This document shows, one piece after another, positions 475-62,510 of a stretch of DNA of 64,000 nucleotides. Position numbers and translations under genes: made by a program. The stretch lies in the IMG/VR virus record IMGVR_UViG_3300027419_000030, positions 5,062 through 69,061 of that record; one strand, 5' to 3'. Origin of the DNA: a virus (Duplodnaviria > Caudoviricetes). Positions within the stretch are counted from its first letter, which is position 1; the number at the start of each line of letters is the position of its first letter. The notes under the pieces were generated by a model, which worked only from the letters and a program-made list of their open reading frames with translations, ran no database searches and had not been told where the DNA came from.

Positions 475-500
475 AGCGCCTCGCCTGCAGGCGAGGCGCT
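475..500. repeat. Perfect 26-bp palindrome AGCGCCTCGCCTGCAGGCGAGGCGCT, representative of the dispersed GC-hairpin family
   Basis: Directly visible; followed by TTAAGGAGG RBS of thyA. Confidence 0.95.
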
Positions 501-513
501 TTAAGGAGGAAAA

Positions 514-1260
514 ATGAAACTATCTAAGACCAACAGGGTAAGAAGTACAAATTTACAGAATGCATGGTATGAAGCAATCAAATTTGTACTATCAGATGGG
601 ATAGATCTCTGCTTCGGCTCGCCAAGCGAGCCAAAACATTGTAAGGACACAATACAAGAAGTAATTTTAACAGGACACGCACTAAGACAAATTGAAGATC
701 ATATAGTACATCCACAATACAAATTCGGTGGAAATTTACTGGAAGAATATTGCAAGGAATTTACAAGAGAATTTTTAACAGAATACTACAAAAAAGAAAT
801 AAACGAGAGATTTGATTATTTATACTACGACAGATTAACAGAATATGCAGGAGTAAGTGATCATGAAGGACCAATAAATCAATTACATAATATGAAAGAA
901 TTGCTGAAATCACAAATAGATTCAGAAATGGCATCAAATTTCTGCCAAGCAATTACATGGGAAGCAGAAAGAGATGGAACTTATGATACAACATCGCCTT
1001 GCCTGCAACGAATTTGGATGCGTTGGTATAAACCAAATATAATTGATGTACATTACTCGTGGAGATCGCGTGATTTATACGGAGCATGGCCTAGTAACAT
1101 AGTAGCATTAACAGAAATGCTAAATAGAGAAGTAATAGCACCAAATTCGTGTATAATTGGGAGGATCATAGACTACTCAGATTCTTTACACATCTACGAT
1201 TACGACTTAAAAGAAGCAAGAAAAGTAAAAGAAATACCAGAATTTCACGGAGTTATTTAA
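514..1260 (+). CDS. thyA: Thymidylate synthase, archaeal ThyA type
   Basis: Catalytic PCLQ, RSRD..GAWPSN (Asn typical of dUMP specificity), DSLHIY; GGAGG RBS. Confidence 0.88.
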   Translation: MKLSKTNRVRSTNLQNAWYEAIKFVLSDGIDLCFGSPSEPKHCKDTIQEVILTGHALRQIEDHIVHPQYKFGGNLLEEYCKEFTREFLTEYYKKEINERFDYLYYDRLTEYAGVSDHEGPINQLHNMKELLKSQIDSEMASNFCQAITWEAERDGTYDTTSPCLQRIWMRWYKPNIIDVHYSWRSRDLYGAWPSNIVALTEMLNREVIAPNSCIIGRIIDYSDSLHIYDYDLKEARKVKEIPEFHGVI

Positions 1261-1485
1261 ATGAAAACAAAAGAATTACAAGCAAAAGAACGAAAAAATG
1301 CAATGAATAAATGGATAGCATACAACGAAGATAAAACAAAAACAAAATTAACAATTGAAGAAATAGATGCATTTGAAACAGGATTCAATATGGGATGGAA
1401 AAGAAGACCAGCAAAAATACTATTAGAAGGAGAAATAGTAATAAGACACATAAAAGGAATACTTAAAAAGAAGGAACAAAAATGA
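1261..1485 (+). CDS. Hypothetical protein
   Basis: Abuts thyA; codon bias matches neighbours; ATGA overlap with next gene. Confidence 0.5.
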   Translation: MKTKELQAKERKNAMNKWIAYNEDKTKTKLTIEEIDAFETGFNMGWKRRPAKILLEGEIVIRHIKGILKKKEQK

Positions 1486-1955
1486 TTAATTACGGAAAAA
1501 TACTATTAATGCACGAAAAAGACAATCCATCAACTTTTTTACGTGCAACTTACTTGTTTAGCAACGTTGGAGATTTAGTTAAGTGCTACGGAAGAAGCAT
1601 TAGATTTCCAGAAGACAAAAAATTATATGAAGCAGAAATGAAATTAGCAATTGCAGATATTTTAATGCAGTGCAGAATGGGATTGGAAGAAAAAGGATAT
1701 AAACAAATAGAAATAAGCAAATTGGACACAAAAAATGAAACCATAGAAGAATCAATAAGAATCGTAGCATTTAATGCAGGAGGTATTGTATATGAAGATA
1801 AACACATGAGTTTACCGGGAAATCTAATAAGAATAATAATAGAATGTTATGTACTATGCGAATTACTAGGAGAAAAAGGAGAAGATATAGAACATTTAGG
1901 ATTTATACACGTAATGGAACGATTTCAAGAATTCGAAAGAAGAGGATGGAAATGA
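1482..1955 (+). CDS. Possible degenerate MazG-like all-alpha NTP pyrophosphatase
   Basis: NVGDLVK...EMKLAIADILMQ resembles the MazG ExGEL...ELAD pattern; lies between thyA and polB. Confidence 0.35.
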   Translation: MINYGKILLMHEKDNPSTFLRATYLFSNVGDLVKCYGRSIRFPEDKKLYEAEMKLAIADILMQCRMGLEEKGYKQIEISKLDTKNETIEESIRIVAFNAGGIVYEDKHMSLPGNLIRIIIECYVLCELLGEKGEDIEHLGFIHVMERFQEFERRGWK

Positions 1956-4498
1956 AAATACAAATTTTAGATGCAAATTACAAATACGACGAAAAAAGAA
2001 ATCCAATAATACAACTTTTTGGAAAACTTTCAAATGGAGAAAGCATAACAAAGAAAATAACAGGATTTAGACCCTATTTCTATTGCGGCCTCTCGCGAGA
2101 GGCCGCAGTAGAGGAAGTTAAAGACGAGTTAGTTAATATGGGAGTAGATATAGAAGAAGTACAGCGATACGAATCGATAGGCTACCAGACTTCTAAGAAA
2201 CTTATGCTTAAAGTAATAGCAATTGATCCTAAAGAAGTAAGATCACTAAGGGAACGAGTAAAAAAGATCAACGGAATAGAAGAAGTATTCGAAACGGATA
2301 TACTTTTCAAAAACCGTTTCATGATAGACAAAAATTTAGGCGGAATGAAGTGGGCAGAAGTACCAAACCAAGAAGAATTTACAGAATCAGAAATTAAATC
2401 ACTAGAAATAAAAGAAAACATGCCACTACGACTAATGAGCATAGATATAGAATGCCTACCAAAACAAAACGGCGCTATGCCAACATCATCAGAAGATCCT
2501 ATCATTCTAACGAGCCTCGCTTTCAGCGAGGCTTATAATGAAACAACGAACTTAGTTCTAGTAGGAAAATTAACCAACCAAAGTTCTGAGAATACGCTCT
2601 CGTTCGCAAACGAGAGCGAATTGTTGGAAAATTTAATGTTAATAATAGAAGATTACGATCCTGATATGATTGTAGGATATAACTCGAATGAATTCGATTT
2701 TCCATATATGGAAACACGCGCAAAAAAGCTAGGTATACGAGCTTCCATCGGGCGCGATGGAAGCTCTCTTTACACTAAGAAAATTGTACTTAACACGAAT
2801 GTAATGGTAACTGGTAGAGTCATTATTGATCTATTGCCTATTTTAAGAAGCTCTAATGAGGATAAGTACAAATTCAAAAGTTACACGCTTAAAAATGTAG
2901 CAAAAAAACTACTAAAGCTTGAAAAACTTGATGTGGACCCAAAAGAAATGAGAGGATTATGGGAAAATGAAGGAGAAGATTTAAAGAATTTCATAGAATA
3001 CTCTAGGAGAGATGCTGTAATCACACTGGACCTGCTACTAGAAATGAAATTAGTAGAAAGATATACAGAAATGGCTAAAGCAAGCGGATCACTATTACAA
3101 GACATAGCAAATGGTGGACAATCTGGAATGATTGAGAACCTATTGCTACGCAGGTTTAAATCACACGATAGAGTAGTACCACCAAAGCCAGATTCAGAAA
3201 CTTCAGATGAAAGATTCGATGATAGCGAATCACTAAAAGGAGGAGCAGTATTAGACCCAGAAAAGGGACTAGTAGAAGATATAATTATATTAGATTATAA
3301 ATCTCTATACCCAACATTAATGATGGCATACAATATATGCTATTCAACAATTTCAAACTCGCCTTCAGGCGAGTTTGAAGGAGTAAAAGCACCAATGGGG
3401 GGAGGAGAATTTGTAAAAACAGAAACATTGAAAGGAATAGTACCAGAAATTTTAGAAGAATTATTGGATAAAAGAATAAAAATTAAAAAACAAATGAAAT
3501 TGGCAACAGGAGCACAAAAGGAATTACTGGATGCAGAACAATATGCAATAAAAATACTTCTAAACAGCTTCTATGGGTATTCAGGATACCAGAGAGCTAG
3601 ATTATACGACCTAAGAATAGCAAACGCAGTAACTAGCTTCGGAAGAGAAAACATTAAAAAAACAACAGACTTAATAAACGAGATGGAAAAAATAGATGAA
3701 TATTCATTCAGAGTAATATACTCCGATACAGATAGCGTATTTATTAAAGTAATAAGCAAAGAAAACAAAATTTCATTGGAAAAAGCAGAAAAATTGGGAG
3801 ATATAATAGGAAAAGAAATAACTAAAAACTTGCCAGAACCAATGGAACTGGTGTATGAAACATTTGCAAGAAGAGGAATATTGCTTGCAAAGAAAAGATA
3901 TGCAATGTGGATTTTTGATAAAACAAGAAAAGGATATGAAGATAAATTAAAAATAAAAGGAATAGAAACAGTACGAAGGGACTGGTGTAATTTAACTTCA
4001 AACACACTAAAAACATGCTTAGATTTAATCTTAAAGGAAGGGAAAATAGCAGAAGCAATTGCATTAGCAAAAGAGAAAGTAGAAAGACTACAAAACTTTA
4101 ACTTAACCAAGGATTCGAGCTTGCTCGAAGACTTGGTGATCACGAAACGATATACGAAAGGAGCAAAAGCATATAAGAACAAACAGCCACATATACAATT
4201 AGTAGAACGAATGAAAGAAAGAGGAGACACACCACCAAACATAGGAGATAGAGTACCATACATTATAATACGTGGAAAATCTGGAGGTAAAAGACAAAAG
4301 GATCTATTTGTAAATCGCGCAGAAGATCCAAACTACATAATAAAACACGGAATTCAAATAGACACAGAATATTACATAAACAAACAATTGCTTCCACCAC
4401 TATTAAGAATATTTTCCACTTTAAACTCTGCCGCGCCAACAGGCGCGGCAGAGTTTGTAATAAAAGATAGAAAACAAAAAACTTTGGAGGATTGGTAA
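1952..4498 (+). CDS. polB: Family B DNA polymerase, archaeal cellular type, with 3'-5' exonuclease and C-terminal PIP box; no intein
   Basis: ExoI SIDIEC, ExoII GYNSNEFDFPY, DYKSLYP, KILLNSFYGY, YSDTDS, KKRYA, KGIETVRRDW, C-terminal QKTLEDW; start placed at the ATG overlapping the upstream TGA. Confidence 0.97.
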   Translation: MKIQILDANYKYDEKRNPIIQLFGKLSNGESITKKITGFRPYFYCGLSREAAVEEVKDELVNMGVDIEEVQRYESIGYQTSKKLMLKVIAIDPKEVRSLRERVKKINGIEEVFETDILFKNRFMIDKNLGGMKWAEVPNQEEFTESEIKSLEIKENMPLRLMSIDIECLPKQNGAMPTSSEDPIILTSLAFSEAYNETTNLVLVGKLTNQSSENTLSFANESELLENLMLIIEDYDPDMIVGYNSNEFDFPYMETRAKKLGIRASIGRDGSSLYTKKIVLNTNVMVTGRVIIDLLPILRSSNEDKYKFKSYTLKNVAKKLLKLEKLDVDPKEMRGLWENEGEDLKNFIEYSRRDAVITLDLLLEMKLVERYTEMAKASGSLLQDIANGGQSGMIENLLLRRFKSHDRVVPPKPDSETSDERFDDSESLKGGAVLDPEKGLVEDIIILDYKSLYPTLMMAYNICYSTISNSPSGEFEGVKAPMGGGEFVKTETLKGIVPEILEELLDKRIKIKKQMKLATGAQKELLDAEQYAIKILLNSFYGYSGYQRARLYDLRIANAVTSFGRENIKKTTDLINEMEKIDEYSFRVIYSDTDSVFIKVISKENKISLEKAEKLGDIIGKEITKNLPEPMELVYETFARRGILLAKKRYAMWIFDKTRKGYEDKLKIKGIETVRRDWCNLTSNTLKTCLDLILKEGKIAEAIALAKEKVERLQNFNLTKDSSLLEDLVITKRYTKGAKAYKNKQPHIQLVERMKERGDTPPNIGDRVPYIIIRGKSGGKRQKDLFVNRAEDPNYIIKHGIQIDTEYYINKQLLPPLLRIFSTLNSAAPTGAAEFVIKDRKQKTLEDW

Positions 4499-4500: not shown

Positions 4501-4565
4501 GCGCCGCGCCAGTTGGCGCGGCGCTTTTAGGAACCACCCGCACGCGAGGCGCGCGGGTTTTTTTT
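4501..4565 (+). terminator. Double hairpin followed by T-run downstream of polB
   Basis: GCGCCGCGCCA-GT-TGGCGCGGCGC, then imperfect CCCGC..GCGGG and T8; between convergent genes. Confidence 0.55.
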
Positions 4566-8076: not shown

Positions 8077-9546
8077 GTGCCTCTACCAATTGACCAAGGA
8101 AACGCATTGCCATCGATGATACAAGAATTTGATGGATTTTCTACGGACACGGTAGACACGAATAGGTGGGATACGCCAACAGTTGTTGGATCGACGGCGA
8201 TCCAACAATCGGGGGGAGAACTTGTTTTTTCAAATAATGGAACAGGAACAAAAGGAATTTCTTACGTAGAAACTATACGAAAATTCGGAAAAAATTGGAG
8301 AAAATCAGTAGATCTTAAATTGGCAACAACAACTGGCGCAAGTGGAGAAATTTCATTAGTTTTATACAAGGACGCAAACAACTACATCAAAATGGGACCG
8401 TATAAATCTGCTACAGTAGATTGTAATGCATATCTAAGGTATAAAGTAGCAGGTAGCGCAGAACAATTAGTACCTTTAACTTCAGATGTAGTAAACAATG
8501 CAGAATTTAGCACATATACATTCGGAATAATAAGCGATACCATACTTTGTTATTATGATGGAATTTTAGTAACTTCTATTCCATTTGGAACAATGTTTAA
8601 TTTCACAGCAAGAATAGAAGCAGGGACAGGAGCAAATACGGACACATTAAGTGCAAAAGCAGATGATTATGAAACATTAAATCATTTAGATACGCTTCTG
8701 ATTACAATAGGGGCAATAGTAAAAGATATTCATGATACTATGGGAACTTCTATGGTAACAGACATTAGCGGAAATATAACTTTAACAGATACTACAGAAG
8801 TGTTCGTAACTTTTACGCAAGCAACCTACGGAACCAAGTTTCGCATAAATCTTTTTGGAGATTTAGAAGGGCAAAGGATAGATTCGGCGGGTTTAACTCC
8901 AAACGGCGGAGCTTTCGTAGATTATACTGCAATGGCTAACAATTTAGTGTCAAATTCCATTCCATTAGTAAATACTCCAACAGCGGGAGATTGTTTCTAT
9001 TTCAAATCATTAACACAATTCCATTCTTTAGATGTTTACATGGAAAGTGGCGCAGGAAACACGGATAATACAATAATTTGGGAATATTGGAATGGTTCAG
9101 CATGGGCAACACTAACGCCTACATCCGATGGAACCGTATATAATACATATAAATTCGGAAAAAGTGGTAGAGTAATTTGGGCAACTAATACCACGCTCTT
9201 ATCTGGTTACTACCAGATAAGAGCAAGAGTAACTACGGCAGGAACTTCAAAGCCTGTAGCAACGCACATTCAAGCTAATGTAGATGGAGAAACAGGATTT
9301 GATGCATTAGCAAGCGCTTTTAGTACACTTACGCTTTCGATTTATCGAAAGCGTGGTGATGGTTCATATGCATCAATGCCAACAGAAGTAGGATTACCAT
9401 ACACACAATGCATATTATACAGAAATTTAGCAATAACCGATTTACCGGCATGGTCCGATATAAAAATTGGCCTGAAGCTGTCGGCTGCGCCGACAGCTCA
9501 AATAACTATTCCATACAACGGATTTATTGAGACGATAGAAGTTTAG
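8077..9546 (+). CDS. Virion beta-rich protein (lectin/ConA-like domains), oriented opposite to neighbours
   Basis: Thr/Gly/aromatic-rich all-beta composition; GTG start; divergent from 8020. Confidence 0.55.
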   Translation: MPLPIDQGNALPSMIQEFDGFSTDTVDTNRWDTPTVVGSTAIQQSGGELVFSNNGTGTKGISYVETIRKFGKNWRKSVDLKLATTTGASGEISLVLYKDANNYIKMGPYKSATVDCNAYLRYKVAGSAEQLVPLTSDVVNNAEFSTYTFGIISDTILCYYDGILVTSIPFGTMFNFTARIEAGTGANTDTLSAKADDYETLNHLDTLLITIGAIVKDIHDTMGTSMVTDISGNITLTDTTEVFVTFTQATYGTKFRINLFGDLEGQRIDSAGLTPNGGAFVDYTAMANNLVSNSIPLVNTPTAGDCFYFKSLTQFHSLDVYMESGAGNTDNTIIWEYWNGSAWATLTPTSDGTVYNTYKFGKSGRVIWATNTTLLSGYYQIRARVTTAGTSKPVATHIQANVDGETGFDALASAFSTLTLSIYRKRGDGSYASMPTEVGLPYTQCILYRNLAITDLPAWSDIKIGLKLSAAPTAQITIPYNGFIETIEV

Positions 9547-9730
9547 TACCAAATTTTTTAAACAATTCATCAATATCTACTCCATAGGGAGTAGATTTTT
9601 CAACAGACTCAAGAATAGATTTAGAAATCTCTAACTCCTCTGGCGAAGCCAGAGGAGAAGAAGTAATTTTATTGGAAGGAACTACGATACCGAACGGAGG
9701 GAAGGATCGCGGGACAGATGGTTGAGACAT
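9524..9730 (-). CDS. Hypothetical protein
   Basis: Fills the gap after the large fibre gene; overlaps its end. Confidence 0.35.
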   Translation of the reverse strand: MSQPSVPRSFPPFGIVVPSNKITSSPLASPEELEISKSILESVEKSTPYGVDIDELFKKFGTKLLSSQ

Positions 9731-12498
9731 ATATGTCCTTTAGTGGTAATAGTATAAGTTTCTTGCTGCAAAATGCTCTCAGCACCTACACCAGAGGGAT
9801 TGAGAATACTATCACCAGAACCACCAGATCCAGCGTTACCAATATCTCCTACGAGAGCATCAGGAGATGAGTAAAACATCAAATCCGCAGTATCTTTATC
9901 AGTACCATTCCGGGGATTATAGAGATACAGGAACGTAAATCCAGAAACTACAAGATTTTGATAAACTTGATCGGTAACTGGATAATAATGCCAAAAAACA
10001 TTAGGATATAGCATTTCAGTATCATCATCAGGGAACAAGTCAACAGCTTCGCTTCCAACTGCCGGAACCACAGTCCCGGCAGGGGTAATATAGCGATAAA
10101 CAGGATGATATACACTGGTGTGAGCACCATACCCTTTACCGGACCATATGAAAACGATGTTTCCTTTATTATCTATGAATGATTGACCTGAGAATTGATT
10201 ATATCCAGACGCAGCCTTATTTGGACTAAGATTTGTAGCTGCGCTCCAAATCTCGGTAACAACGGAGCGTTTTCGGTAGAAAACTTCTTTGATAGCAGTA
10301 CCTGCATCAGTCCATTTACAGTAAAACAGAAAAACATTACAATCCTTGTCAGTAATAATGTTTCCAGGAAATCCTACATACGAATCAGTATCAACATTTT
10401 CAACAGCACCCCAAGAACCACCAGAATACTTACAATATTCAAGAGATTGGTTAGTAGTAGCATTAAACCACGCCGTATGGATATCGCCTTGCGAGTCGAT
10501 ATCCATAGAGGGATAAAGCATGTGGTTATCGGAAGTTGTTAGGTCTACTCTAGCTCCAAGGGAGCCGGAAGTGAGTTTTTTGTAACAAATCCTGGCTCTG
10601 CCGAGATTAGTGTTAAGACCCTGAGCAGCCCACAGAAAATGCAAATTATCATTACCATCAGCCAAACAAACTCCTTCAAATGAAGGATAATACTTTTTTA
10701 TCAAACTTATATTTACGACAGCAGCTTGAACACCGAGAGGAGAAATGTATCTATAAAATAAATCATTACCATGCCGAGTGCAATCTATTTGAGTATCAAC
10801 GCGCCAAGTTCTAGGCATGATTCGAGAAACTAGATTGGAATATGGATTAAATGCGATATTATAATTATGCGTATGAGAACATGTAGCATATTGTGTATTA
10901 TAACCAGATAAACTAATTCTATTATTGCACCCACCGGAGGTGGGTGCAATAATAGAAGTAACAATATCATCATGGTCATGAGTAAGAACACCACTGAGAT
11001 CAGAATATGTTGATTTGCCGACAAAATGCTTTCCATTAAGAGTTTCACCAGTAGCAGATAAAGATGTCATTGAAGTAAGCAAAGATGCGCTTCCAAGCAA
11101 TAAAAGAGCATTTTGAGCAATAACGGTTAGAGGAGAAGTAACTTTACCAAGAATAAGACCATATGCAGGAGGATTATTAGAAGCATAACTATTATAAAGT
11201 GATCCAGAATGCTCGTGAGAACACTTAGAAACTTGACTACCAGACGTACCGCCAGATAAACAATACTGATTACCATTAAAATTATAAGTTACAAGATGTC
11301 TATGCTGCAAAGCACCAACAACAGTTCCAACATCATCAGAACAATAAATAAAATAGTTATCCTGATCAGAATAGCGCGAATATCCAACGGGAACGTCAGA
11401 ATTAAATGGAACTATTATATCGGCAGGAAGAGATGTAGGAATTCCATAATAACGGAGCAATTTAAGAGATCTGCTAACAGGAAGAGATGAAGCATTTCCA
11501 ATACTGGTATTATGAGCGGTATGATGCCAACCAAATATAGCAGAATCGCCGCCATAGCCTTCCCATAGCTTATCAACACTACCATTGACTTCTCCACCGG
11601 AAATGGAAGCTCCATGCTGATGAAGATTGTATGCATCAGGATCGCTACCAAGAGCAGGATAGGTAGTACCTTCTTCGCCTCCAAGGAGACGATGATAACC
11701 TACGCCACCAGCGCCAGATACCAATTCAAAGCCATCGGGAGTAGAACCGCCACAGAAAAGCCAATAAGTAGGAAAAGTGACAAGATCGTTTCTAGTATAC
11801 GTTATGTGAATGCCATTATTCTTGTCGCAAGTGATGGAAGGCATGATATAATGCTGTCCATCGTCGTTATCGACGATGGTAGCAACCCACTTTTCGCCAC
11901 CATTAGTAGATTTTAGGTAAACTACGCGAGAAAGACCAGAAATAATATAAGAACAGACTGCATGAATAGAACCATCCGGAGTTTTTACTATATGCCTGGC
12001 AGAAACAGGAAATAAAATCATCTGAGATTGCATTAATGAACCAGAAAGCCAGGATGTGATGGCAGGAAATTGGATGGCAGCCGCAATAATAACATTGGTA
12101 GAAGCAATATCAGTAACTACATTCTTATGCCAATCATCCGACAAATTGTCATCGCTTTGCGCAGGAAGATCCACAGAGGCCCCTATATCCTGAACGAAGG
12201 GAGCATCACCAACAAACACTTGCTGGACACCAGCAGGACCAATTGAAGCCTTATGCCATATCTCGGACTCATTGAGGCCTGTAGCATAATTAGAAAGCCA
12301 CGCCGGAACAGGCTCACTGGCTAAATCGAGAACACGTTGATCAACTGGAATAAGTTTAGAGGAAACAAGAGCAGGATCAATAGCAGTCCTATAATTTAAG
12401 ACAGGATCATTGGTAGGATTAGTAATAATTATTGCAGAAATTTCTTTAGACTCAGAAAGAGATTGAGCCATCTTAGTCTGAACATGAGCCTGATCCAC
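9682..12498 (-). CDS. Large spike/fibre protein with beta-propeller-like segments and repeated His-x-His needle modules (probable start 12471)
   Basis: S-x-N/D-G-G-x-x-W BNR-like motif; multiple HxH motifs (HQH, HRH, HEH, HDH, HTH) as in trimeric phage fibre tips; D-x-x-G-x-I-H propeller repeats. Confidence 0.65.
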   Translation of the reverse strand: MDQAHVQTKMAQSLSESKEISAIIITNPTNDPVLNYRTAIDPALVSSKLIPVDQRVLDLASEPVPAWLSNYATGLNESEIWHKASIGPAGVQQVFVGDAPFVQDIGASVDLPAQSDDNLSDDWHKNVVTDIASTNVIIAAAIQFPAITSWLSGSLMQSQMILFPVSARHIVKTPDGSIHAVCSYIISGLSRVVYLKSTNGGEKWVATIVDNDDGQHYIMPSITCDKNNGIHITYTRNDLVTFPTYWLFCGGSTPDGFELVSGAGGVGYHRLLGGEEGTTYPALGSDPDAYNLHQHGASISGGEVNGSVDKLWEGYGGDSAIFGWHHTAHNTSIGNASSLPVSRSLKLLRYYGIPTSLPADIIVPFNSDVPVGYSRYSDQDNYFIYCSDDVGTVVGALQHRHLVTYNFNGNQYCLSGGTSGSQVSKCSHEHSGSLYNSYASNNPPAYGLILGKVTSPLTVIAQNALLLLGSASLLTSMTSLSATGETLNGKHFVGKSTYSDLSGVLTHDHDDIVTSIIAPTSGGCNNRISLSGYNTQYATCSHTHNYNIAFNPYSNLVSRIMPRTWRVDTQIDCTRHGNDLFYRYISPLGVQAAVVNISLIKKYYPSFEGVCLADGNDNLHFLWAAQGLNTNLGRARICYKKLTSGSLGARVDLTTSDNHMLYPSMDIDSQGDIHTAWFNATTNQSLEYCKYSGGSWGAVENVDTDSYVGFPGNIITDKDCNVFLFYCKWTDAGTAIKEVFYRKRSVVTEIWSAATNLSPNKAASGYNQFSGQSFIDNKGNIVFIWSGKGYGAHTSVYHPVYRYITPAGTVVPAVGSEAVDLFPDDDTEMLYPNVFWHYYPVTDQVYQNLVVSGFTFLYLYNPRNGTDKDTADLMFYSSPDALVGDIGNAGSGGSGDSILNPSGVGAESILQQETYTITTKGHICLNHLSRDPSLRSVS

Positions 12499-12555
12499 GC
12501 TTCAAGTATCTGCGCGGCAGATACTTGAAGGTTTGTGAGATAAAAAAAAAGTAAA

Positions 12556-21080: not shown

Positions 21081-21106
21081 AGCGCGGAGATTTGGAGGAA
21101 TTTTTA

Positions 21107-46173: not shown

Positions 46174-46355
46174 AACTCGTATTTATGCGGTGCGAAGGAG
46201 TAACGCACCGCATATATCGAGCGAGGGATAGCAGCCGCATCGTAAAGCAAGGAAACCAATGCGACAACAACCTAAACGTTTTTTCAGGATATAAATTTAA
46301 CTATTAGCATCAGGCGACCACAAGTATTATAAAGAAGTATTGCGAATAAGTATTC

Positions 46356-52035: not shown

Positions 52036-52204
52036 CAGAAGAGGGTACTTTAATTGTAGGGCACTCTAGGGCCTCTTCCTGGCACTTGCCTTCCATAGTA
52101 GGCAAGTGTGAGGTAAGCCTGGTAAAAGCCTGGATTTCGTGGGATAGGCCCGGAAATCCGGGAAGTTAGTAAGGGACTTAGGATGAAACAAAAGGTGATT
52201 AGAA

Positions 52205-52711: not shown

Positions 52712-53290
52712 ATGGAACTTTCAAGAGAAACCAAGATAGTATTAATCACAATAGCAAGCATATCCGCTATAATTACCTTCGCAGTCCACGACTGCAAAGG
52801 CCAATTAAGCTCAAAAGAAATTGAAACCATGGGGTATTACACCAAAGGAAATTGCACCCTAATCAACGACATAGAACCATCAATCAATCATTCTCTAATC
52901 AAAAAAGTAAACAATCTACTAAACTCATATAAATACACCAAAGAATACCAAGAAAACATATTCGATTGCTCCGATCGAGCAGTAGTTTGTTTCAAACTAC
53001 TCCAAGCCGAAGGCTTGGAACCTAAATTAGCTTATAGATTCTCAAACAAAGGAGCGCATACATGGATCATAGCATTCGATAAATGGAAAAAAGGAATCTT
53101 CGTAGAATGTTGCTACACGGAAGACAACAAACTCGGAAAACTTGTAAATGGAAACTCGAAATACTTCGAGTATGACTCAGCATGGCTCATGGAGCCAAGC
53201 GAGTATGAAACATACTTCAAAGACATCGAAAAAACATCGCTTACGATGAATAGGAATAACGACTACATGAATTATATCGAACGACTTTAG
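52712..53290 (+). CDS. Membrane-anchored transglutaminase/papain-like cysteine protease
   Basis: N-terminal TM; FDCSDRA (Cys) and HTWI (His) motifs. Confidence 0.55.
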   Translation: MELSRETKIVLITIASISAIITFAVHDCKGQLSSKEIETMGYYTKGNCTLINDIEPSINHSLIKKVNNLLNSYKYTKEYQENIFDCSDRAVVCFKLLQAEGLEPKLAYRFSNKGAHTWIIAFDKWKKGIFVECCYTEDNKLGKLVNGNSKYFEYDSAWLMEPSEYETYFKDIEKTSLTMNRNNDYMNYIERL

Positions 53291-53652: not shown

Positions 53653-53704
53653 TAAAATCATCAGCGCCCCGCCAGCAGGCGAGGCACTTTAGGAGGTCGA
53701 TTGA

Positions 53705-54184
53705 ATGAAAATTGGTATAGTAGGCCACGGAAGCAATAAATTTGATTCAAGAACAACTCTAATAGCTAAAAATCTAATAAGAAAGATACTTTCTTCAAGC
53801 AAAGACAACATCTTAGTATCCGGTCACTCGCCAGTAGGAGGAATTGACATATGGAGTGAAGAAATAGCCAAAGAATTAAACCTAGAAATGGATATAAAAA
53901 CACCTAAACAAAACACTTGGAACGCAGAATATGGATACAAGCAACGAAACTTGGACATAGCACATAATTCAGACGAAGTACACGTAATCCTCGTATCAGA
54001 ATATCCAAAAGGATACAAAGGATTGCGTTTTAATGAATGCTATCATTGTGCGAAGCACAATGAAGCAAAGATAAGAAATCACATAAAATCGGGTGGTTGT
54101 TGGACCGGGTGGGAAGCAATAAAAGCAGGAAAACACGTATATTGGCATATCATCAGCGCCTCGCCAGCGGGCGAGGCGCTTTGA
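53705..54184 (+). CDS. SLOG-superfamily (YspA/DprA-like) nucleotide-binding protein
   Basis: IGIVGH, LVSGHSPVGGIDIWSEEIA, RNLDIAHNSD, GGCWT. Confidence 0.65.
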   Translation: MKIGIVGHGSNKFDSRTTLIAKNLIRKILSSSKDNILVSGHSPVGGIDIWSEEIAKELNLEMDIKTPKQNTWNAEYGYKQRNLDIAHNSDEVHVILVSEYPKGYKGLRFNECYHCAKHNEAKIRNHIKSGGCWTGWEAIKAGKHVYWHIISASPAGEAL

Positions 54185-54394: not shown

Positions 54395-54446
54395 GAATCA
54401 AACAGCCTAGCCGCGCCTGTTGGCGCGGCTAGGCTTTAAGGAATCA

Positions 54447-54542: not shown

Positions 54543-54639
54543 CGGTTGGAAGCAAAAAGAATAGAAATAAAAAAAGAAATAAGAAACTCGCGCCTGTTGG
54601 TGCGAGTTTCTAAAGGTAATTGTAAGGATGTGACTTAAA

Positions 54640-55152
54640 ATGGCTAAAGCAAGCAAGAAAGCAACTGAAATGAATTTGATCGACAACGTAGTAGAGGAAA
54701 GCAATGAAGAAATGAGAAAAGGAAGCATTTTCTTCATTATGGGAGCAAAACCGGAACAAGTAGTAATAACCGGAGCAGCTTTGAGAACTCAAACCTATAA
54801 AAAAGGTGATGCAAACGTAATTGATCTAAAGATCGTTACGGAAGACGAACGAGTACAAATAGCAACAATCCCGCAATTTGCAAAATTTGCATACAACGAC
54901 ACTGCTCGACTTCTAAAAAAGCATGGAGTAAAAATCACCGCCCGCTATCCAGCAGGTGTAAAAGCAGACCTTAAGATGTATAAATGGGTAGCTACGCCAG
55001 CAATTCCAATCGTAATTACTCCAAACGAATTCAACGACAGAATCTGGATCGGAAGAATCAAAGAAATTCCAATTCCAGTTGAAGCTCCACTAGGGGTAAA
55101 TCTCCTCGATGAAATCGAGGATGAAGTAAGCACCCAGGAGATCTCTGCATGA
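54640..55152 (+). CDS. Hypothetical protein
   Basis: Clean ORF after hairpin. Confidence 0.55.
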   Translation: MAKASKKATEMNLIDNVVEESNEEMRKGSIFFIMGAKPEQVVITGAALRTQTYKKGDANVIDLKIVTEDERVQIATIPQFAKFAYNDTARLLKKHGVKITARYPAGVKADLKMYKWVATPAIPIVITPNEFNDRIWIGRIKEIPIPVEAPLGVNLLDEIEDEVSTQEISA

Positions 55153-55478
55153 GCAGAGATCTCGTAGGAGAAATTGTAGAAGAACAAAGAAGAAACTACA
55201 ATCAATCTTTTTTACGACAACTAGGAACATCGGAAGAGCAATTAGAAGATGGATTCCTTAAAATTTATGAAACCTGTTGCTCATTCGAAAACCAGGAACT
55301 AGTAAAAATGGGCCAAAGAGGCTCAGTTTACACAGATGACGAAGCTTTTGAAGATAATTTCAACCATGCAAAATGGAAAAAAGAACAAATCTACGACGTA
55401 AAAAAGAACGAATACGACGTAGTAAGAGCCAGAAGAATATTCAACAGCATTCGCGCCCAGCAGGGCGCGAATGCTTAG
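55149..55478 (+). CDS. Hypothetical protein
   Basis: ATGA coupling; C-terminus encoded by a hairpin. Confidence 0.55.
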   Translation: MSRDLVGEIVEEQRRNYNQSFLRQLGTSEEQLEDGFLKIYETCCSFENQELVKMGQRGSVYTDDEAFEDNFNHAKWKKEQIYDVKKNEYDVVRARRIFNSIRAQQGANA

Positions 55479-55939: not shown

Positions 55940-56085
55940 TAAAATAAGCTCGCGCCAACAGGCGCGAGCTTACATAATAATGACAATCATAAATCCGCCA
56001 GAGATCTACATAGGTGTTTGACGAATATTCCACCTAGAGATTCAGCTTTTTAAGAGTTTCTAGGTAATAATAGGAGGAATACAAA

Positions 56086-56337: not shown

Positions 56338-56615
56338 AAATACTACTACTTATAATTGCGTTCGCACTCGCAAGCGCGAACGCACAGAGCATAGATGTGA
56401 GCTTCAGCAGCAGCAATAGAGTAAACATAGACACATCAGAATTGCAATTAGATTACGATGATACATTATACATCAATGGAGAAATTTGGAACGGAAAAAA
56501 AACATGGATAGATCAAGAAGGTACATTTTTTAATGAAACTTGGTTGAACGAAAAACTGCACCAGAAAAAGATAGTATGGATAAACGGAACACAAGTGATA
56601 ACAATAGGAGACTAA
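56334..56615 (+). CDS. Secreted hypothetical protein
   Basis: Signal peptide MKILLLIIAFALASANA. Confidence 0.55.
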   Translation: MKILLLIIAFALASANAQSIDVSFSSSNRVNIDTSELQLDYDDTLYINGEIWNGKKTWIDQEGTFFNETWLNEKLHQKKIVWINGTQVITIGD

Positions 56616-57042: not shown

Positions 57043-57085
57043 ACTTTAAGCGCCCCGCGCAGCGGGGCGCTTCAGAGGTTTTACT

Positions 57086-57616
57086 ATGCCAAGCTCGCAA
57101 TTTTCTCAAATCCCAGAAATAATGGGACTAGTAAACCAAATTTCGCCAAATAGCATCCTAGATGTAGGATGCGGTAACGGAAAATATGGTTTTCTTTGTA
57201 GGGAACTTTTAACTTACTGGCTAGGAAAAAAAGAAATAAAAATCGATGCAATTGAAGTATTTCCATCATATATAGGTCCAATGCAACAAGAAATTTATGA
57301 TGAAATTTATGGAGGAGAAGCAATATCATGGCTAAAAAAGATGTCAAATAAATCGTACGACTTAATCATAGCAATAGACATCCTAGAACACTTCGAAAAA
57401 GCAGATGGCTACGAATTCTTGTCTCAATTAAAACGTGTAGGAAAACATGTAATCATAAGCACCCCAAAAACCCCATCAAAACAGGGACCAGTTTTCGGAA
57501 ACTCATATGAAGAACACAAATCCAAATGGCTCCCATCGGAGATGGGAGCCAAGAGAGAAAACGTAACAAAAAACGAAGAAAATTATATAGTATTTCTTAT
57601 TTGCCAAATGGAGTAA
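57086..57616 (+). CDS. Class I SAM-dependent methyltransferase
   Basis: [12 protein letters not shown]; [12 protein letters not shown]. Confidence 0.88.
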
Positions 57617-58413: not shown

Positions 58414-58520
58414 TGAAGGAAACAGGAAAAGAGCAAAAAAATTATCCAAATAAAGAAACAACAATAAAAAAACTTTAATTGCTCCCGCGCTTGCAAGCGC
58501 GGGAGCTAAGAGGAATTTTT

Positions 58521-59397: not shown

Positions 59398-59436
59398 CCG
59401 CGCTCGCCTATTGGCGAGCGCAATTTAGGAGGAAAT

Positions 59437-59766: not shown

Positions 59767-60272
59767 TGAAATTAAAACTATTATCAGGAGACATTAACTG
59801 GAAAATATTTGGAGCGAAATGGATAACAAAGAAACTAAACAACGAAGATTTTGATTATTGGTTGATTGTATCATTCATGAATTTCGAAGAAGAAACTAGT
59901 GAAAAATGCAATGGAAATAAATATGTAGTAGAAATTCATGCAGTTGCACCATCACAAGTACCAGAAGAAGAGCTAAAAAGAGCAATTGAATCATGCGGAA
60001 GAGAAACACGAGAAAATGAATTAACAGAAGAAATAAAAGCAGAATTGCTGGAAGAATATGGAATAAGTGCAAACTTGAAAACATTATATGGAAACAACGC
60101 AAATAAATTAATGAAAGAAGCAAGAAAAGACCTCAATTTAGTCGAAGGACTATTTGGATTCTTCATGGACAAACCAGAAAATCAAATAGGCTCAACAGGA
60201 TGGGACATAATAAAAGGAGATTTGATGGCAGGACTTTATAAGCCTCGCGGCCCGCTGGCCGCGAGGCTTTAG
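59763..60272 (+). CDS. Hypothetical protein
   Basis: ATGA coupling; C-terminus encoded by a hairpin. Confidence 0.5.
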   Translation: MMKLKLLSGDINWKIFGAKWITKKLNNEDFDYWLIVSFMNFEEETSEKCNGNKYVVEIHAVAPSQVPEEELKRAIESCGRETRENELTEEIKAELLEEYGISANLKTLYGNNANKLMKEARKDLNLVEGLFGFFMDKPENQIGSTGWDIIKGDLMAGLYKPRGPLAARL

Positions 60273-60713: not shown

Positions 60714-60769
60714 AAATCGTCGCTTAAAATGAAGGCCCGCGCAAAGCGCGGGCCTTCATCGGAGGTTTT

Positions 60770-61378
60770 ATGATTACACTTTACACAGGAGATAACTACG
60801 AAAGTAAAGCAATTAGAATAGTATTAGAAGAAAAACACATAGAATTTAAAGAAAAACAAATAGAAACAACTACAGAAAACGAACTAAAACGATTAGCAAC
60901 TGAAATACGTTCAATAAGACCAAAATTAACACAATATGGACCAGAAAATAGATGGGATTTTAACGAATTAATTTTATCTCCAATTCTAAAAACAGAATTC
61001 GGAACATTCCCTTGGTGGCACCTAAGAACAAACTTAGATCAAGTAATAACAAAAATAAAAGCAAACCAAAAACCAGAAAAAAAGAAACTAAAAATTAAAA
61101 GAATCAGAAAAAACCAAAACTCACAGAGCATTTGCCTAACGGCAAATGCTCTAGGAAGAATAAACGTAACGATACTGCGTGCATTGCACGGAGCAAACAT
61201 AGTAGATTTAGTAAATAGCTGGTCGCTAGAAGAGCGAACAACTTTCATGATAGCATGGAGACTTTGCCAACATCAAAAAAGGAACGAACTGCGAATATTC
61301 GCAGATATGCTAGAAAACAAAGCAAAAACATCAGACCCTTACGAAGAAAAGAATAACGAATGGATTGGATCAATTTAA
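60770..61378 (+). CDS. Hypothetical protein
   Basis: Hairpin + GGAGG RBS. Confidence 0.5.
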   Translation: MITLYTGDNYESKAIRIVLEEKHIEFKEKQIETTTENELKRLATEIRSIRPKLTQYGPENRWDFNELILSPILKTEFGTFPWWHLRTNLDQVITKIKANQKPEKKKLKIKRIRKNQNSQSICLTANALGRINVTILRALHGANIVDLVNSWSLEERTTFMIAWRLCQHQKRNELRIFADMLENKAKTSDPYEEKNNEWIGSI

Positions 61379-61420
61379 GCTAGTCGGCATACGGGCCGAC
61401 TAGCTATAAAAGAGATAACT

Positions 61421-62206
61421 ATGATAACAATGCGGAATTACAATCAATGGGTTTTATGGAGTGAAAAAGAGAGATCAGGAAAAAAGACTAAAATTCCACT
61501 AGGAAAAAATGGGAGAGCTACCAATGTAACAAATCCTATATGTTGGAAATCTTTTGACCAGGCATTAGAAGAAAAATTAGCACATCCAGAACTTTTTGAT
61601 GGAATCGGTTTCTGTTTCTCAGAAAATGATCCATATCTAGGAATAGACTTAGACGATGTAAAAAAATGGTATGGATGGGAGGAAATTATAAAAAAACTAG
61701 ATAGTTACACAGAAACAAGCCCTTCAGGAAATGGATATCACATTATAGTAGAAGGTTTCATACCAGGAGAGATAAACGCAAGAAAAATAGGTTCACATGA
61801 AACTGGCGGAATAGAAATGTACGATTCCGGGAGGTACTTTACAGTAACTTTAGATCCATTGGACGGAAGAGAAGAAATAAAAAAGAATCAAGAAGGAATA
61901 GCATGGCTTTTTAATTCAATCGACGACAAAGGACTAATCTCAAAACTTATGAATAAACCATACGCAAAGAAACTACAATTGTTATGGGAAAATCGTTTCA
62001 CACTGGCTGGCTACGCCAGCCAATCAGAAGCGGAACTTGCGTTCTGTAGAATTCTGGCAAACAACGGTGCACCAGCACATCAAATAGATAGAATCTATAG
62101 GAAAACTAAGCTATTTCGACAGAAATGGCTTGAGAAAAGAGGAAACACGACTTATGGAAAAGCAACACTGGAATTAGCAACAAATGGAGATAATAAAAAT
62201 GAATGA
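61421..62206 (+). CDS. AEP primase-polymerase (NrS-1-like) with C-terminal helical bundle
   Basis: QWVLW...KIP, GIGF...GIDLDD, YTETSPSGNGYH, IEMYDSGRYFTVT, SQSEAE. Confidence 0.85.
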   Translation: MITMRNYNQWVLWSEKERSGKKTKIPLGKNGRATNVTNPICWKSFDQALEEKLAHPELFDGIGFCFSENDPYLGIDLDDVKKWYGWEEIIKKLDSYTETSPSGNGYHIIVEGFIPGEINARKIGSHETGGIEMYDSGRYFTVTLDPLDGREEIKKNQEGIAWLFNSIDDKGLISKLMNKPYAKKLQLLWENRFTLAGYASQSEAELAFCRILANNGAPAHQIDRIYRKTKLFRQKWLEKRGNTTYGKATLELATNGDNKNE

Positions 62207-62459
62207 TTTAGAAATAACAAAACTAGTACTGAGTAGAATGGATAGAAATGCAAATAATTTGGAAGAAGCATTAGGAGTAACTGATGAACGAGAAAAAGAA
62301 TTGATAGAAAATGTAAAAAAAGTAAAAAATCTAGTATTCCAACCAGGAGATCAAGTAAAAAATGAAACAATATACATATTGGAACAATGTAAAACACCAG
62401 GAGAATTACTTTTAACAATGACACATCTAGGAGCAGCACTATTAGCAGCAACAATTTAA
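62199..62459 (+). CDS. Hypothetical protein
   Basis: GGAG RBS. Confidence 0.45.
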   Translation: MNDLEITKLVLSRMDRNANNLEEALGVTDEREKELIENVKKVKNLVFQPGDQVKNETIYILEQCKTPGELLLTMTHLGAALLAATI

Positions 62460-62510
62460 TCAGCCAGCGCAGCAGAGCGGGCTGATTTAAATAAGTTTAA
62501 ATAGTATGAC

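Follow-up and report, generated by a model that had tools for sequence, protein, structure and literature searches.

In Haloferax, 503 transcript ends have a hairpin upstream of them, and a hairpin that was tested halted 59% of transcripts (PMC7237163). The PeSLs of T4-type phages and the "hairpin rule" of giant viruses are among the closest known kinds of element to the ones described here. About a third of the genes of the uncultured virus examined in this study end in a very stable, perfectly paired, GC-rich hairpin, and these hairpins most likely serve as transcript-end signals in a clade of archaeal viruses whose probable host is Methanothrix. The window analyzed, meaning the whole 64-kb stretch, belongs to a genome of 69,061 bp; features below lie on the plus strand unless given as minus or unstranded.

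A sequence-only reading of the window had proposed a family of 33 hairpins, with a dinucleotide-shuffled control as a check. An inverted-repeat scan for perfect stems of at least 9 bp with loops of 0-9 nt returned 58 hairpins in the whole genome, 52 of them within the window, far above the background of 2.5 ± 1.3 (maximum 5) in 50 dinucleotide-preserving shuffles. All 33 noted sites fold, their RNA energies lying between -14.0 and -32.5 kcal/mol; the stem is perfect over at least 9 bp in 29 of them, the four imperfect ones being those at 53663, 54582, 56357 and 62458. A further 23 perfect hairpins were identified in the window. Stem lengths range from 9 to 19 bp and loops are mostly 3-4 nt, and as single-stranded DNA the hairpins reach -13 to -21 kcal/mol (z -4 to -12). 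Gene-end hairpins are mostly GC-rich. Their density along the genome is very uneven, with almost none between 30 and 50 kb. The giant-protein genes at 37-46 kb had been described as free of hairpins, which holds for GC-rich ones, but three perfect AT-rich palindromes lie within the 1457-aa gene (37684..37701, 38751..38774 and 39597..39625).

The core CGCC-N4-GGCG, put earlier at about a dozen copies, was counted 12 times against 0.18 expected. The outer arms, said to differ completely, are indeed mostly unrelated, but they also form small families, with five pairs sharing at least 9 nt against 0.2 expected. Loop length and arm sequence vary while the arms stay complementary across relatives, in agreement with the suggested selection on structure rather than on a fixed protein site. 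Additionally, the loop-closing pair is 5'-C..G-3' in 70% of cases and the reverse G..C in 2%, despite G exceeding C on this strand, a bias which argues for real single-strand folding under selection. Triloops of the G-N-A type, which form very stable DNA mini-hairpins, account for 17 of 44 triloops. Among sense-strand stem mismatches, G-T (7) is not commoner than A-C (13), and thus leaves no RNA signature.

The host is among the methane-producing archaea, with Methanothrix as the probable genus. Viral PolB shares 50-55% identity with that of Methanothrix, and the viral genome contains a multi-copy mobile element of Methanothrix. The archaeal setting assumed at the outset was borne out, as was the absence of RNase III, since none is encoded by the virus; the search of the viral genome for RNA-processing families likewise returned no Cas6-like protein and no other member. 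The hairpins are a clade-wide viral trait that is kept in relatives at 56-70% identity, with densities of 5.7-7.0 per 10 kb in those whose primase identity is 56-57%. In a haloarchaeal tailed virus the density is 0.4 per 10 kb. The sampled DNA of the host lineage is without them: 379 kb from Methanothrix and other Methanosarcinales contained 16 hairpins against 14.8 expected, and the core CGCGCC-N4-GGCGCG, found six times in the virus, does not occur in a 3.6-Mb Methanothrix chromosome. Thus, a host factor that reads such hairpins is not evident.

The proposal that the hairpins punctuate gene boundaries was upheld in part, with 35 of 66 located at or adjoining gene ends and 31 inside genes; gene calls were crude, which leaves some error in the junction counts. 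The stop codon falls from 33 nt before to 28 nt after the start of the stem (mostly -4 to +15), and a gene-end hairpin typically precedes a ribosome-binding site, 10-20 nt before the next start codon. The order stop, hairpin, ribosome-binding site and ATG, reported for most junctions between 53.6 and 62.5 kb, was found at about 14 of 20 and not at the remainder. Across four fairly independent genomes (G0, G1, L106 and L107), hairpins occupy 8 of 27 convergent, 32 of 195 tandem and none of 25 divergent junctions (convergent versus divergent, p=0.004), and with the close relative added the counts are 15 of 39 convergent versus 1 of 36 divergent (p=1e-4). Archaeal TATA boxes were found upstream of the first genes of operons, and the promoter gaps containing them have no hairpins. 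Such a distribution, with hairpins between convergent or tandem genes and hardly ever between divergent ones, agrees with a 3'-end element and speaks against promoters of the phage N4 type. The preference for gene 3' ends, together with the lack of hairpins in long promoter gaps, also speaks against an element acting purely as DNA. Amongst the four roles first proposed, an mRNA 3'-end or processing element fits this placement best. Archaeal RNA polymerase is known to need oligo-T. The hairpins are without oligo-T tails: T5 occurs within 60 nt of only 9 of 32 hairpin sites versus 13 of 66 gene ends that have no hairpin, and separate oligo-T signals are present at other gene ends.

Individual sites illustrate this arrangement. 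The convergent junction between the polB stop at 4498 and a minus-strand gene ending at 4565 holds an unstranded hairpin (4501..4524), past which lies a second GC-rich stem with T8 at about 4531-4565. The convergent gap 9546/9682 contains two unstranded hairpins, one followed by T5 (9575..9596) and one whose stem is retained in three of three genomes while its loop varies (9635..9657); a further convergent junction, 25778/25812, carries 25786..25815 (unstranded). On the minus strand, 12500..12530 separates two genes and shows two base pairs changed on both sides across three genomes, 13021..13048 lies in the gap between genes 12556-12855 and 13178-14152, and 14882..14911 lies 40 nt past the stop of gene 14952-15935. 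On the plus strand, the hairpin at 475..500, 3 nt past stop 471 and 13 nt before ATG 514, forms a family with those at 16994 and 54155. The hairpin at 16987..17024 (perfect core 16994-17017) sits between stop 16937 and ATG 17028, and a relative at 70% identity carries a different hairpin at this gene end; the same replacement is seen at 25388..25409, which is followed by T-runs. The stem of 17622..17649 starts 1 nt past stop 17620, 21066..21093 has the stop codon in its loop and is identical in the close relative, 24565..24590 is a palindrome 28 nt past stop 24536, and 46184..46214, with a 9-nt loop, lies 10 nt past stop 46173. An unstranded hairpin with an 8-nt loop (52078..52113) is located near the end of gene 51769-52035.

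Within the densely punctuated right part of the window, the last codons of genes 53705-54184 and 59745-60272 form the hairpins 54155..54180 and 60240..60269, respectively, and those of another gene form 55446..55475, where the stop codon overlaps the next ribosome-binding site. A decayed copy of the 54155 hairpin with two mismatches lies upstream of gene 53705-54184 (53663..53690). Other gene-end hairpins are found at 54404..54435 (14-bp stem), 55138..55163 (across the stop of gene 54640-55152), 55945..55972, 59400..59421 (2 nt past the stop), 60729..60759, 61378..61405 and 62458..62488, the last being imperfect and placed at the stop of gene 62184-62459. The hairpin at 54582..54611 contains one G-T pair and lies 28 nt before ATG 54640, and the close relative and two other metagenomes lack its left half; a looser one with a 10-nt loop precedes ATG 56086 (56032..56065). 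At junction 57042/57084 the place of 57048..57072 (unstranded) is taken in the close relative by another perfect hairpin, and 58481..58506 follows the pentapeptide-repeat gene. The unstranded perfect palindrome at 63860..63886 has a 12-bp stem and an uncertain gene context at the window end.

Comparison with relatives indicated both retention and turnover. Hairpins kept in both close genomes have arms that are 91.7% identical, against 83.9% for the flanks, and the compensatory changes anticipated earlier were observed as both-sided base-pair changes at 12500, 54155 and 55945, the latter two being single changes relative to the close relative. In the 70%-identity relative, a 3' hairpin is found more often at genes that have one in this virus (8 of 19 vs 6 of 37, p=0.04; 10 of 22 vs 4 of 32, p=0.008), usually with a different sequence; retention at this distance is moderate, at 42-45%. 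Gene gain and loss, which had been named as a further comparison to make, is enriched at the hairpins: 34 of 56 indel or replacement boundaries relative to the close relative are located at hairpins, compared with 29-33% for gene boundaries as a whole (p<=2e-4). For example, the variable 151-aa gene 21623-22078 lies between two copies of one hairpin (21573..21600 and, unstranded at a convergent junction, 22078..22105), whereas in the close relative the gene is missing and one copy is present. Two copies of one hairpin also bracket variable genes at 53663/54155 and, in a relative, at 5104/5890. One convergent junction contains no, one or more added genes in three genomes, each added gene being followed by its own hairpin. 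In the close relative, extra genes with their own hairpins are present at 60729..60759, and another hairpin plus an extra gene takes the place of 61378..61405. Deletions ending at hairpins were also observed in other metagenomes, including one of 889 nt with its right edge at 58481..58506, and one contig skips only the hairpin at 61378..61405 (31 nt).

Palindromes inside genes are more abundant than the earlier reading conveyed. Perfect ones number 27 against 2.0 expected from a synonymous-codon shuffle (about 13-fold), compared with 19 against 1.5 in the close relative and a weaker 5 against 1.4 in the 70%-identity relative. They are mostly lineage-specific, and the six in polB, all in frame or in linkers, lie in variable parts of PolB: 2079..2112 (variable linker; both relatives have the same length and no palindrome), 2513..2533, 2584..2629 (perfect core 2595-2618), 2739..2766, 3352..3379 (variable loop) and 4423..4456 (GC-rich, 15-bp stem, variable C-terminal linker). 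Gene 8077-9546 contains 8183..8208 (lineage-specific), 9195..9224, 9331..9354 and, near its 3' end, 9476..9498, which is nearly retained in the 70%-identity relative. On the minus strand, gene 9682-12498 harbors a near-palindrome at 10476..10507 and palindromes at 10917..10957 and 11858..11879, and others occur at 13823..13845, 14058..14085 (a near-palindrome), 28266..28291, 29273..29295, 29314..29338 and 35790..35812, the last largely retained in three of three genomes. The remaining plus-strand cases are 52981..53001 (lineage-specific), 54043..54063, 56357..56384 (imperfect, just within gene 56334-56615), 57527..57551 (at the start of the pentapeptide-repeat gene) and 61125..61152. Arms of lineage-specific palindromes are 70% identical to the orthologue and their flanks 79%. 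The palindromes at 10917, 9331 and 2739 each combine an ancestral arm with a rewritten one, with length unchanged; in 2739..2766 the 3' arm encodes a conserved peptide and the 5' arm is the changed side. The 19-bp stem at 10917..10957 matches the orthologues at 14 of 19 positions in its left arm and 6 of 19 in its right, and would be the clearest example of a palindrome arising through inverted copying.

These rewritten arms bear on whether the palindromes have a function at all. As a mutational or selfish by-product, frequent errors of inverted copying (template switching) by the viral replisome could write functionless palindromes that survive where they do least damage, after stops and in variable protein loops, as the in-gene enrichment, the lineage specificity and the faster divergence of the arms would suggest. 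We consider this clearly improbable as a full account, given that long divergent promoter gaps, where palindromes should be harmless, have none, that hairpins kept between genomes are better conserved than the sequence around them, that gene-end positions are kept above chance across 30% divergence, and that the C..G closure bias points to selection for stable folding. Moreover, both arms have diverged equally from the orthologue at 2084 and 13823 (the latter with arms 50% and flanks 93% identical to the close relative), which a single copy event does not predict. A role as primarily DNA-level recombination sites of gene cassettes, acting through short homologies or through extruded or single-stranded hairpins with any RNA effect secondary, is possible but rather unlikely. 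The indel boundaries, the like hairpins bracketing variable genes, the junction with differing numbers of added genes and the metagenome deletions give the proposal partial support, as do perfect Watson-Crick stems with no G-U bias and with high stability as DNA; if each cassette consisted of a gene with its 3' hairpin, the hairpin-less divergent junctions would be explained too. The recombinase is where the proposal falls short, as the viral genome yielded neither a tyrosine recombinase nor a Y1 transposase nor an Hjc-type resolvase. No sequence is common to most hairpins, so homologous exchange would be possible only within the small families. In addition, whole-gene indels necessarily fall at gene boundaries, and both hairpins and indels are concentrated among small accessory genes, so their association may be indirect.

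The perfect, DNA-stable stems and the G-N-A triloops would equally suit sites at which a single-stranded hairpin loads or primes the viral PrimPol-helicase or an NrS-1-like primase-polymerase. The virus encodes a 996-aa PrimPol/zinc-ribbon protein and another protein with an NrS-1 polymerase helix-bundle domain, and its plus strand stays A-rich in regions whose genes have the opposite orientation, which suggests asymmetric replication. Such signals are nevertheless very unlikely, and the earlier suggestion of primase sites gained no support: placement tracks gene ends and junction type rather than spacing or strand, long promoter gaps are devoid of hairpins, loop composition has no clear genome-strand bias beyond base composition, the 30-50 kb region is almost empty, and the arms share no sequence for a primase to recognize. 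The N4-like promoters also suggested, which would be served by a virion RNA polymerase among the 37-46 kb giant proteins, are extremely improbable. Hairpins do lie shortly before ribosome-binding sites and start codons, and the giant proteins match no known family. However, hairpins are missing from divergent promoter gaps and present at convergent ends, where nothing starts, and first genes of operons have TATA boxes instead; no T7-like polymerase domain was found in the virus by a search whose control was likewise without a match.

Altogether, we give an even chance to the reading in which the hairpins are stem-loops at transcript ends, carried along with their genes and serving as recombination seams as well. 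Read into RNA, a hairpin would form a very stable stem-loop marking the 3' end of the upstream message, where it may attenuate or terminate transcription without oligo-T, block 3'-to-5' decay or guide processing. Within operons it would partly insulate neighboring genes, and at convergent gene ends a single palindrome could serve both directions. A hairpin that travels with its gene would also provide a seam for the gain, loss and exchange of small accessory genes among related viruses. Template-switch events may make and maintain the perfect pairing, and may seed the palindromes inside genes. Against transcript-end stem-loops, near-perfect Watson-Crick stems would suit a DNA-level element equally well, the oligo-T of the archaeal polymerase is not found after the hairpins, a terminator role leaves the 27 in-gene palindromes unexplained unless translation masks them, and neither a viral RNA-processing family nor a host reader came to light.

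Compared with known systems, the stems of 9-19 bp with loops mostly of 4 nt are unlike phage N4 promoters, which have stems of 5-7 bp and 3-nt loops. Bulged bases and conserved core sites, the defining features of attC, are also missing from the stems; attC is the integron site to which, along with PeSL-mediated shuffling, the recombination-site explanation was likened. The nearest counterparts are those of giant viruses and T4-type phages, and in the latter the PeSLs are likewise seams of gene exchange.

Perfect, GC-rich hairpins occur across the genome far more often than chance would allow. A scan for perfect stems of at least 9 bp with loops of at most 9 nt returned 58 hairpins genome-wide, compared with 2.5 ± 1.3 in dinucleotide shuffles. 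All 33 sites that the sequence-only reading had listed as hairpins did fold, with RNA energies of -14 to -32.5 kcal/mol, and 29 of these have perfect stems. Stems are 9-19 bp long and mostly GC-rich, loops are mainly 4 or 3 nt, and the hairpins are also very stable when folded as single-stranded DNA. The core CGCC-N4-GGCG, which had been estimated to recur about a dozen times, has 12 occurrences (0.18 expected).

Colinear relatives with approximately 85-90% (close) and 70% (distant) DNA identity to the virus contain 60 and 24 such hairpins, respectively. Two far relatives (56-57% primase identity) carry 5.7-7.0 per 10 kb in the same layout of stop codon, hairpin, ribosome-binding site and ATG. 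By comparison, 379 kb of DNA from Methanothrix and other Methanosarcinales held 16 hairpins against 14.8 expected, and the longer core CGCGCC-N4-GGCGCG, found six times in the 69-kb virus, was absent from a 3.6-Mb Methanothrix chromosome. A haloarchaeal tailed virus with a related family-B DNA polymerase (PolB) has 0.4 hairpins per 10 kb. Altogether, the hairpins are a feature of the virus clade and not of the host.

The virus record comprises 69,061 bp with a 66-bp terminal repeat, and the window corresponds to its bases 5062-69061. Recognizable products include PolB (1844-4498), a PrimPol/zinc-ribbon protein of 996 aa (47634-50624), a protein combining Myb-like and LAGLIDADG matches (33749-34963) and a pentapeptide-repeat protein (57526-58413) that is missing in some related strains; family matches are absent for most other proteins. 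Pfam matches among small proteins, not individually located, were to dCMP/cytidine deaminase, an HNH endonuclease with an AP2 domain, DUF1699, a winged-helix domain and DUF488-N3a. Pfam, PHROGs and the protein atlas gave no lead for the giant proteins at 36983-43849, and no tRNA genes were found. The known-phage collection held no near DNA match, and PolB identity there was only about 25%, to haloarchaeal viruses and cyanophages. The runs listed for window 53000-62900 are DNA contigs only, from groundwater and landfill metagenomes, and assemblies of sludge and digesters contain more distant relatives.

The virus very probably infects an archaeon of the genus Methanothrix. The best evidence is a shared mobile element at 58684-59217, an interval with at least 49 matching places in one Methanothrix chromosome at 81-93% identity (about nine copies of about 300 nt at 81-82%, and about 25 of a piece of about 90 nt at 84-93%), so that the virus carries a multi-copy host mobile element. 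Read depth in the source metagenome spikes 40-50-fold over this interval, and the element is MITE-like, with no large transposase adjoining the one host copy examined. Additionally, dozens of Methanothrix and Methanotrichaceae genomes encode a PolB with 50-55% identity to the viral enzyme, compared with 43-46% for other Methanosarcinales, and viral polB looks like a capture from the host lineage. The PolB C-terminus encoded on a 2,974-nt contig binned as Melioribacteraceae is 69% identical to that of the virus; this contig probably stems from a related virus and was placed in a bacterial MAG by mis-binning.

Archaeal TATA-like boxes lie approximately 25-30 nt upstream of the ATG at the first genes of operons (16021, 23778, 31294, 36845 and 46290), which implies leaderless mRNAs transcribed by the host RNA polymerase. 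Operon-internal genes have strong ribosome-binding sites, and sigma-70-like sites showed no excess over shuffles. On the plus strand A exceeds T, and G mostly exceeds C, throughout the window, including regions of minus-strand genes (flank A 0.33 vs T 0.26 there), and this asymmetry independent of gene direction hints at asymmetric replication. In a gene-poor region, an extreme oligo-T block (51270-51345) is followed by a near-pure purine stretch (about 51360-51500); candidate identities are a strong cluster of archaeal terminators and an origin-like region.

The hairpins had been described as punctuation of gene boundaries. This applies to 35 of 66 hairpins, which lie at or next to gene ends, but not to the 31 that crude ORF calls place inside genes, and only about a third of genes bear a hairpin. 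At gene ends the first stem base lies -33 to +28 nt from the stop codon, mostly -4 to +15 (negative where the stem starts before the stop codon), and the stem ends 10-20 nt upstream of the next start codon, directly upstream of the ribosome-binding site. The last codons are encoded within the hairpin at 54155, 55446 and 60240.

No result was more informative than that on junction type. Across four fairly independent genomes, hairpins are present at 8 of 27 convergent and 32 of 195 tandem junctions but at 0 of 25 divergent ones (convergent vs divergent, p=0.004), and adding the close relative gives 15/39 convergent vs 1/36 divergent. Divergent gaps are the longest non-coding stretches and contain TATA boxes. 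A promoter, or an element that is merely tolerated, would be expected there, and its absence therefore points to a gene 3'-end element and speaks against a promoter of the phage N4 type, a role that had been suggested from the sequence and that we now regard as hardly credible. The N4 promoter hairpin has a 5-7-bp stem and a 3-nt loop and is read by a T7-like virion RNA polymerase; the present stems are 9-19 bp with loops mostly of 4 nt.

The hairpin at the polB end is followed by a second, imperfect GC-rich stem with T8 (4531-4565) that resembles a canonical terminator. The 11-nt word CCGCACGCGAG stands just 3' of two different hairpins (4538 and 54193; 0.18 expected). A branched fold with a long closing stem and two small hairpins lies at 54442-54547, between hairpins 54404 and 54582, and contains the word CTGATGAG. 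A lax Rfam search of 54380-54640 gave chance-level hairpin matches only and no hammerhead despite that word, and no Rfam family reached its gathering score anywhere in the window.

In the current view, archaeal RNA polymerase terminates at runs of oligo-T with the aid of aCPSF1, and hairpins are regarded as marginal. At the viral hairpins, the sense strand shows no U-tract (about 7-9 nt) immediately 3' of the stem (T fraction 0.1-0.5, no run). A scan with the bacterial terminator consensus yielded 20 matches vs 12.6 ± 4.6 in shuffles, and the large hairpins among them scored on the strand opposite the neighbouring genes. Bacterial intrinsic (Rho-independent) termination was ruled out by the missing U-tract and the archaeal host, although the hairpins resemble such terminators in being GC-rich and in their place at tandem and convergent gene ends. 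The canonical archaeal signal was also rejected, as T5 occurs within 60 nt at only 9 of 32 hairpin gene ends vs 13 of 66 without a hairpin. Runs of at least five T are nevertheless present after 22% of gene ends, where 5% would be expected; they are a gene-end class of their own, barely tied to hairpins. A composite promoter-terminator was set aside, there being no consistent TATA-like box adjoining the hairpins.

Enzymes that might act on such structures were sought in six frames of the virus. RNase III (PF00636, PF14622) had no match at E≤1 while bacterial controls matched; the tyrosine recombinase family PF00589 was not found, with 14 of 14 control genomes matching; and neither a Y1 (RAYT/IS200-type) transposase (PF01797) nor an Hjc-type resolvase was found. 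T7-like RNA polymerase (PF00940) likewise gave no match, in a search whose control also matched nowhere.

Several observations suggested that the fold itself is maintained, as had been proposed from the differing but complementary arms. The loop-closing pair of gene-end hairpins is 5'-C..G-3' in 70% and G..C in 2%, despite G exceeding C on the strand. Small loops, whether of RNA or of DNA, are stabilised most by a C-G closing pair, and the bias therefore points to real folding of a single strand. For hairpins retained in both close genomes, identity is 91.7% in the arms vs 83.9% in the flanks, and against the 70% relative the values are 78% vs 52-60%. Additionally, a 3' hairpin tends to recur on the same gene in the 70% relative (8/19 vs 6/37, p=0.04; 10/22 vs 4/32, p=0.008), usually with a different sequence; this test uses one-gene orthology, the strict version with both neighbours conserved giving 1/5, too little power at 70% identity.

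Base-pair changes on both sides, in register, are present at 12500, 54155 and 55945; the two at 12500, from a three-genome in-register alignment, were equalled or exceeded in 58 of 500 shuffles and are weak alone. Covariation counts between two perfect stems were rejected as circular because every difference between perfect stems is two-sided, and arm-versus-flank identity and the three-genome alignment were used instead. A general rule that arms evolve faster than flanks was dropped, being true of only a subset of hairpins. The stems are nearly always perfectly Watson-Crick paired, and sense-strand mismatches comprise 7 G-T vs 13 A-C, so that G-T is not favoured and the usual RNA signature is missing. 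This wobble test provides neither support for, nor firm evidence against, selection at the RNA level. A-R-C-R tetraloops outnumber their complements 17 to 4 at plus-strand genes, which matches the A-rich composition, and there are few minus-strand cases.

Palindromes are also abundant inside genes, where 27 perfect ones were counted vs 2.0 in synonymous-codon shuffles (about 13-fold); the corresponding values are 19 vs 1.5 in the close and 5 vs 1.4 in the distant relative. Six lie in polB, in variable linkers or over a conserved peptide, with length unchanged. Lineage-specific palindromes are 70% identical to their orthologues, compared with 79% for the flanks. In the clearest cases, 10917, 9331 and 2739, one arm keeps the ancestral sequence and the other has been rewritten to complement it, the trace expected of templated inverted copying (template switching). 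We infer this origin from these few examples only, since both arms changed at 2084 and 13823. In-frame palindromes in an essential polymerase gene suggest that such changes are unusually frequent in this replication system, and inverted copying would be a fast route to rewriting gene boundaries and protein loops.

Hairpins also coincide with places where genes have come or gone. Against the close relative, indels and replacements of at least 80 nt have 56 boundaries, 34 of them with a hairpin within 35 nt, compared with a baseline of 29-33% of all gene boundaries (p≤2e-4). In this comparison whole-gene indels can only end at gene boundaries, and small accessory genes are where hairpins and indels alike are concentrated. 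The gene at 21623-22078 lies between two copies of one hairpin (21573 and 22078); the close relative has only one copy there and not the gene, and none of the added genes is present in the distant relative. The gene at 53705-54184 is likewise bracketed by two hairpin copies, as is a gene in the relative. Hairpin families are small, with five pairs sharing at least 9 nt in this genome, nine in the close relative and none in the distant one. In other metagenomes, contigs carry deletions that stop at 58475, immediately ahead of hairpin 58481; half of hairpin 54582 is missing through a loss of 40 nt, and hairpin 61378 is passed over by a skip of 31 nt. A single backward joint, in contigs of DNA runs, was explained by two similar flanking hairpin copies.

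These observations can be read in several ways. We give an even chance to the hairpins being RNA stem-loops at gene ends, where they would attenuate or terminate transcription or protect the message from 3' decay; moving together with their genes, they would also mark recombination seams. This reading is favoured because the placement rules fit a transcript 3'-end element best, and because there are precedents in Haloferax and in giant viruses. The proposal of cassette or recombination sites is partly sustained, by the enrichment of breakpoints at hairpins, but the six-frame searches found no recombinase, and a DNA-level role of this kind as the primary function seems unlikely. That the hairpins serve as replication or priming signals appears very unlikely.

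Palindrome-writing replication errors would account for the in-gene excess, but hairpins that were largely a non-functional product of them would be merely tolerated and expected in divergent gaps as well, and we consider this quite unlikely. A combined scheme, also unlikely, is a self-renewing cassette system that dispenses with a recombinase. Inverted copying by the viral replication machinery would continually write perfect GC-rich palindromes, and those falling after stop codons would be kept, both as message-ending or message-protecting elements, by a hairpin-dependent, oligo-T-independent route not known for archaeal transcription, and as joints for gene exchange between co-infecting viruses.

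A whole clade of methanogen viruses thus has very stable hairpins without a T-tail at about a third of its gene ends, a feature that the probable host lacks. Should the hairpins prove to form or protect the 3' ends of RNA, they would constitute a compact natural set of hairpin-dependent archaeal gene-end signals, useful for studying how archaea terminate transcription and degrade RNA, and a possible source of parts for methanogen genetics.

Gene-end hairpins are already a known kind of element, and several systems offer points of comparison. Integron attC sites, which recombine as folded single strands, have conserved core sites, an unpaired spacer and extrahelical bases and need the IntI recombinase. 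They share with the viral hairpins a position at the 3' end of the (cassette) gene and a structure conserved in place of sequence; the viral stems differ in being perfect, with no shared outer core and no tyrosine recombinase. REP/BIME elements of enterobacteria and pseudomonads, associated with RAYT transposases, stabilise upstream mRNA and attenuate transcription. They too are GC-rich palindromes outside genes, situated at 3' ends or where two genes converge, but they are high-copy and sequence-conserved with imperfect stems, whereas the viral hairpins are mostly unique and perfect, the virus has no Y1 transposase and its longer core is missing from the Methanothrix chromosome.

In Haloferax volcanii, hairpins lie upstream of 503 RNA 3' ends, and in an in vivo test 59% of transcripts were terminated by one hairpin without a T-stretch (Berkemer et al. 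2020, PMC7237163). The archaeal setting and the lack of a T-stretch are shared, but the Haloferax hairpins are cellular, heterogeneous and found by end-mapping, whereas those of the virus are known from sequence and are far longer, perfect and virus-specific.

In Mimiviridae, Pithovirus and related giant viruses, nearly all gene ends are marked by palindromes of unrelated sequence, the 'hairpin rule' (Byrne et al. 2009; Priet et al. 2015, PMC4402537). The likeness extends to palindromes directly after stop codons in an AT-rich viral genome, with structure and not sequence kept, and to a similar density (6.5 per 10 kb in the giant-virus locus here). That locus, from an unrelated giant virus (GVMAG-M-3300005987-10) retrieved through distant PolB similarity, has nine AT-rich palindromes in 13.7 kb, mostly with 0- or 1-nt loops, the classic pattern of the rule. 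The present virus differs in its GC-rich stems, loops of 3-4 nt, lack of an RNase III-like gene and hairpins at only about a third of genes, and polyadenylation at a cut hairpin would not be expected because the host is archaeal and the genes have ribosome-binding sites.

The promoter-early stem-loops (PeSLs) of T4-type phages (Arbiol et al. 2010, PMC2839356; Comeau et al. 2014, PMC4122927) are likewise stable stem-loops that follow a stop codon and precede the ribosome-binding site and start codon of the next gene. They are similarly concentrated among small accessory genes in variable regions, with variable genes enclosed by two copies of the element when a relative without the gene has just one, and with breakpoints of gene gain and loss at the elements in the pattern of PMC2839356. 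Unlike PeSLs, the viral hairpins have no promoter half (neither a TATA box nor a sigma-70 consensus alongside), and the host is archaeal, the palindromes perfect and many of them in-gene. A PeSL is moreover a motif of about 100 bp conserved among copies, allowing homologous exchange, whereas the viral hairpins are mostly unrelated and form small families only. A similar TATA-plus-inverted-repeat motif is reported ahead of many ORFs of the haloarchaeal virus HGTV-1, and the same pattern of gene gain and loss has been suggested for it (PMC3950731). The tie between the present hairpins and the gain or loss of genes carries the PeSL notion, in which regulatory cassettes serve as recombination seams, beyond T4-type phages to viruses of archaea. 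What is new relative to these systems is a methanogen virus clade whose host lineage lacks the hairpins, hairpins with neither oligo-T nor a promoter half, perfectly paired stems with fast turnover, and abundant in-frame palindromes that include the polymerase gene.
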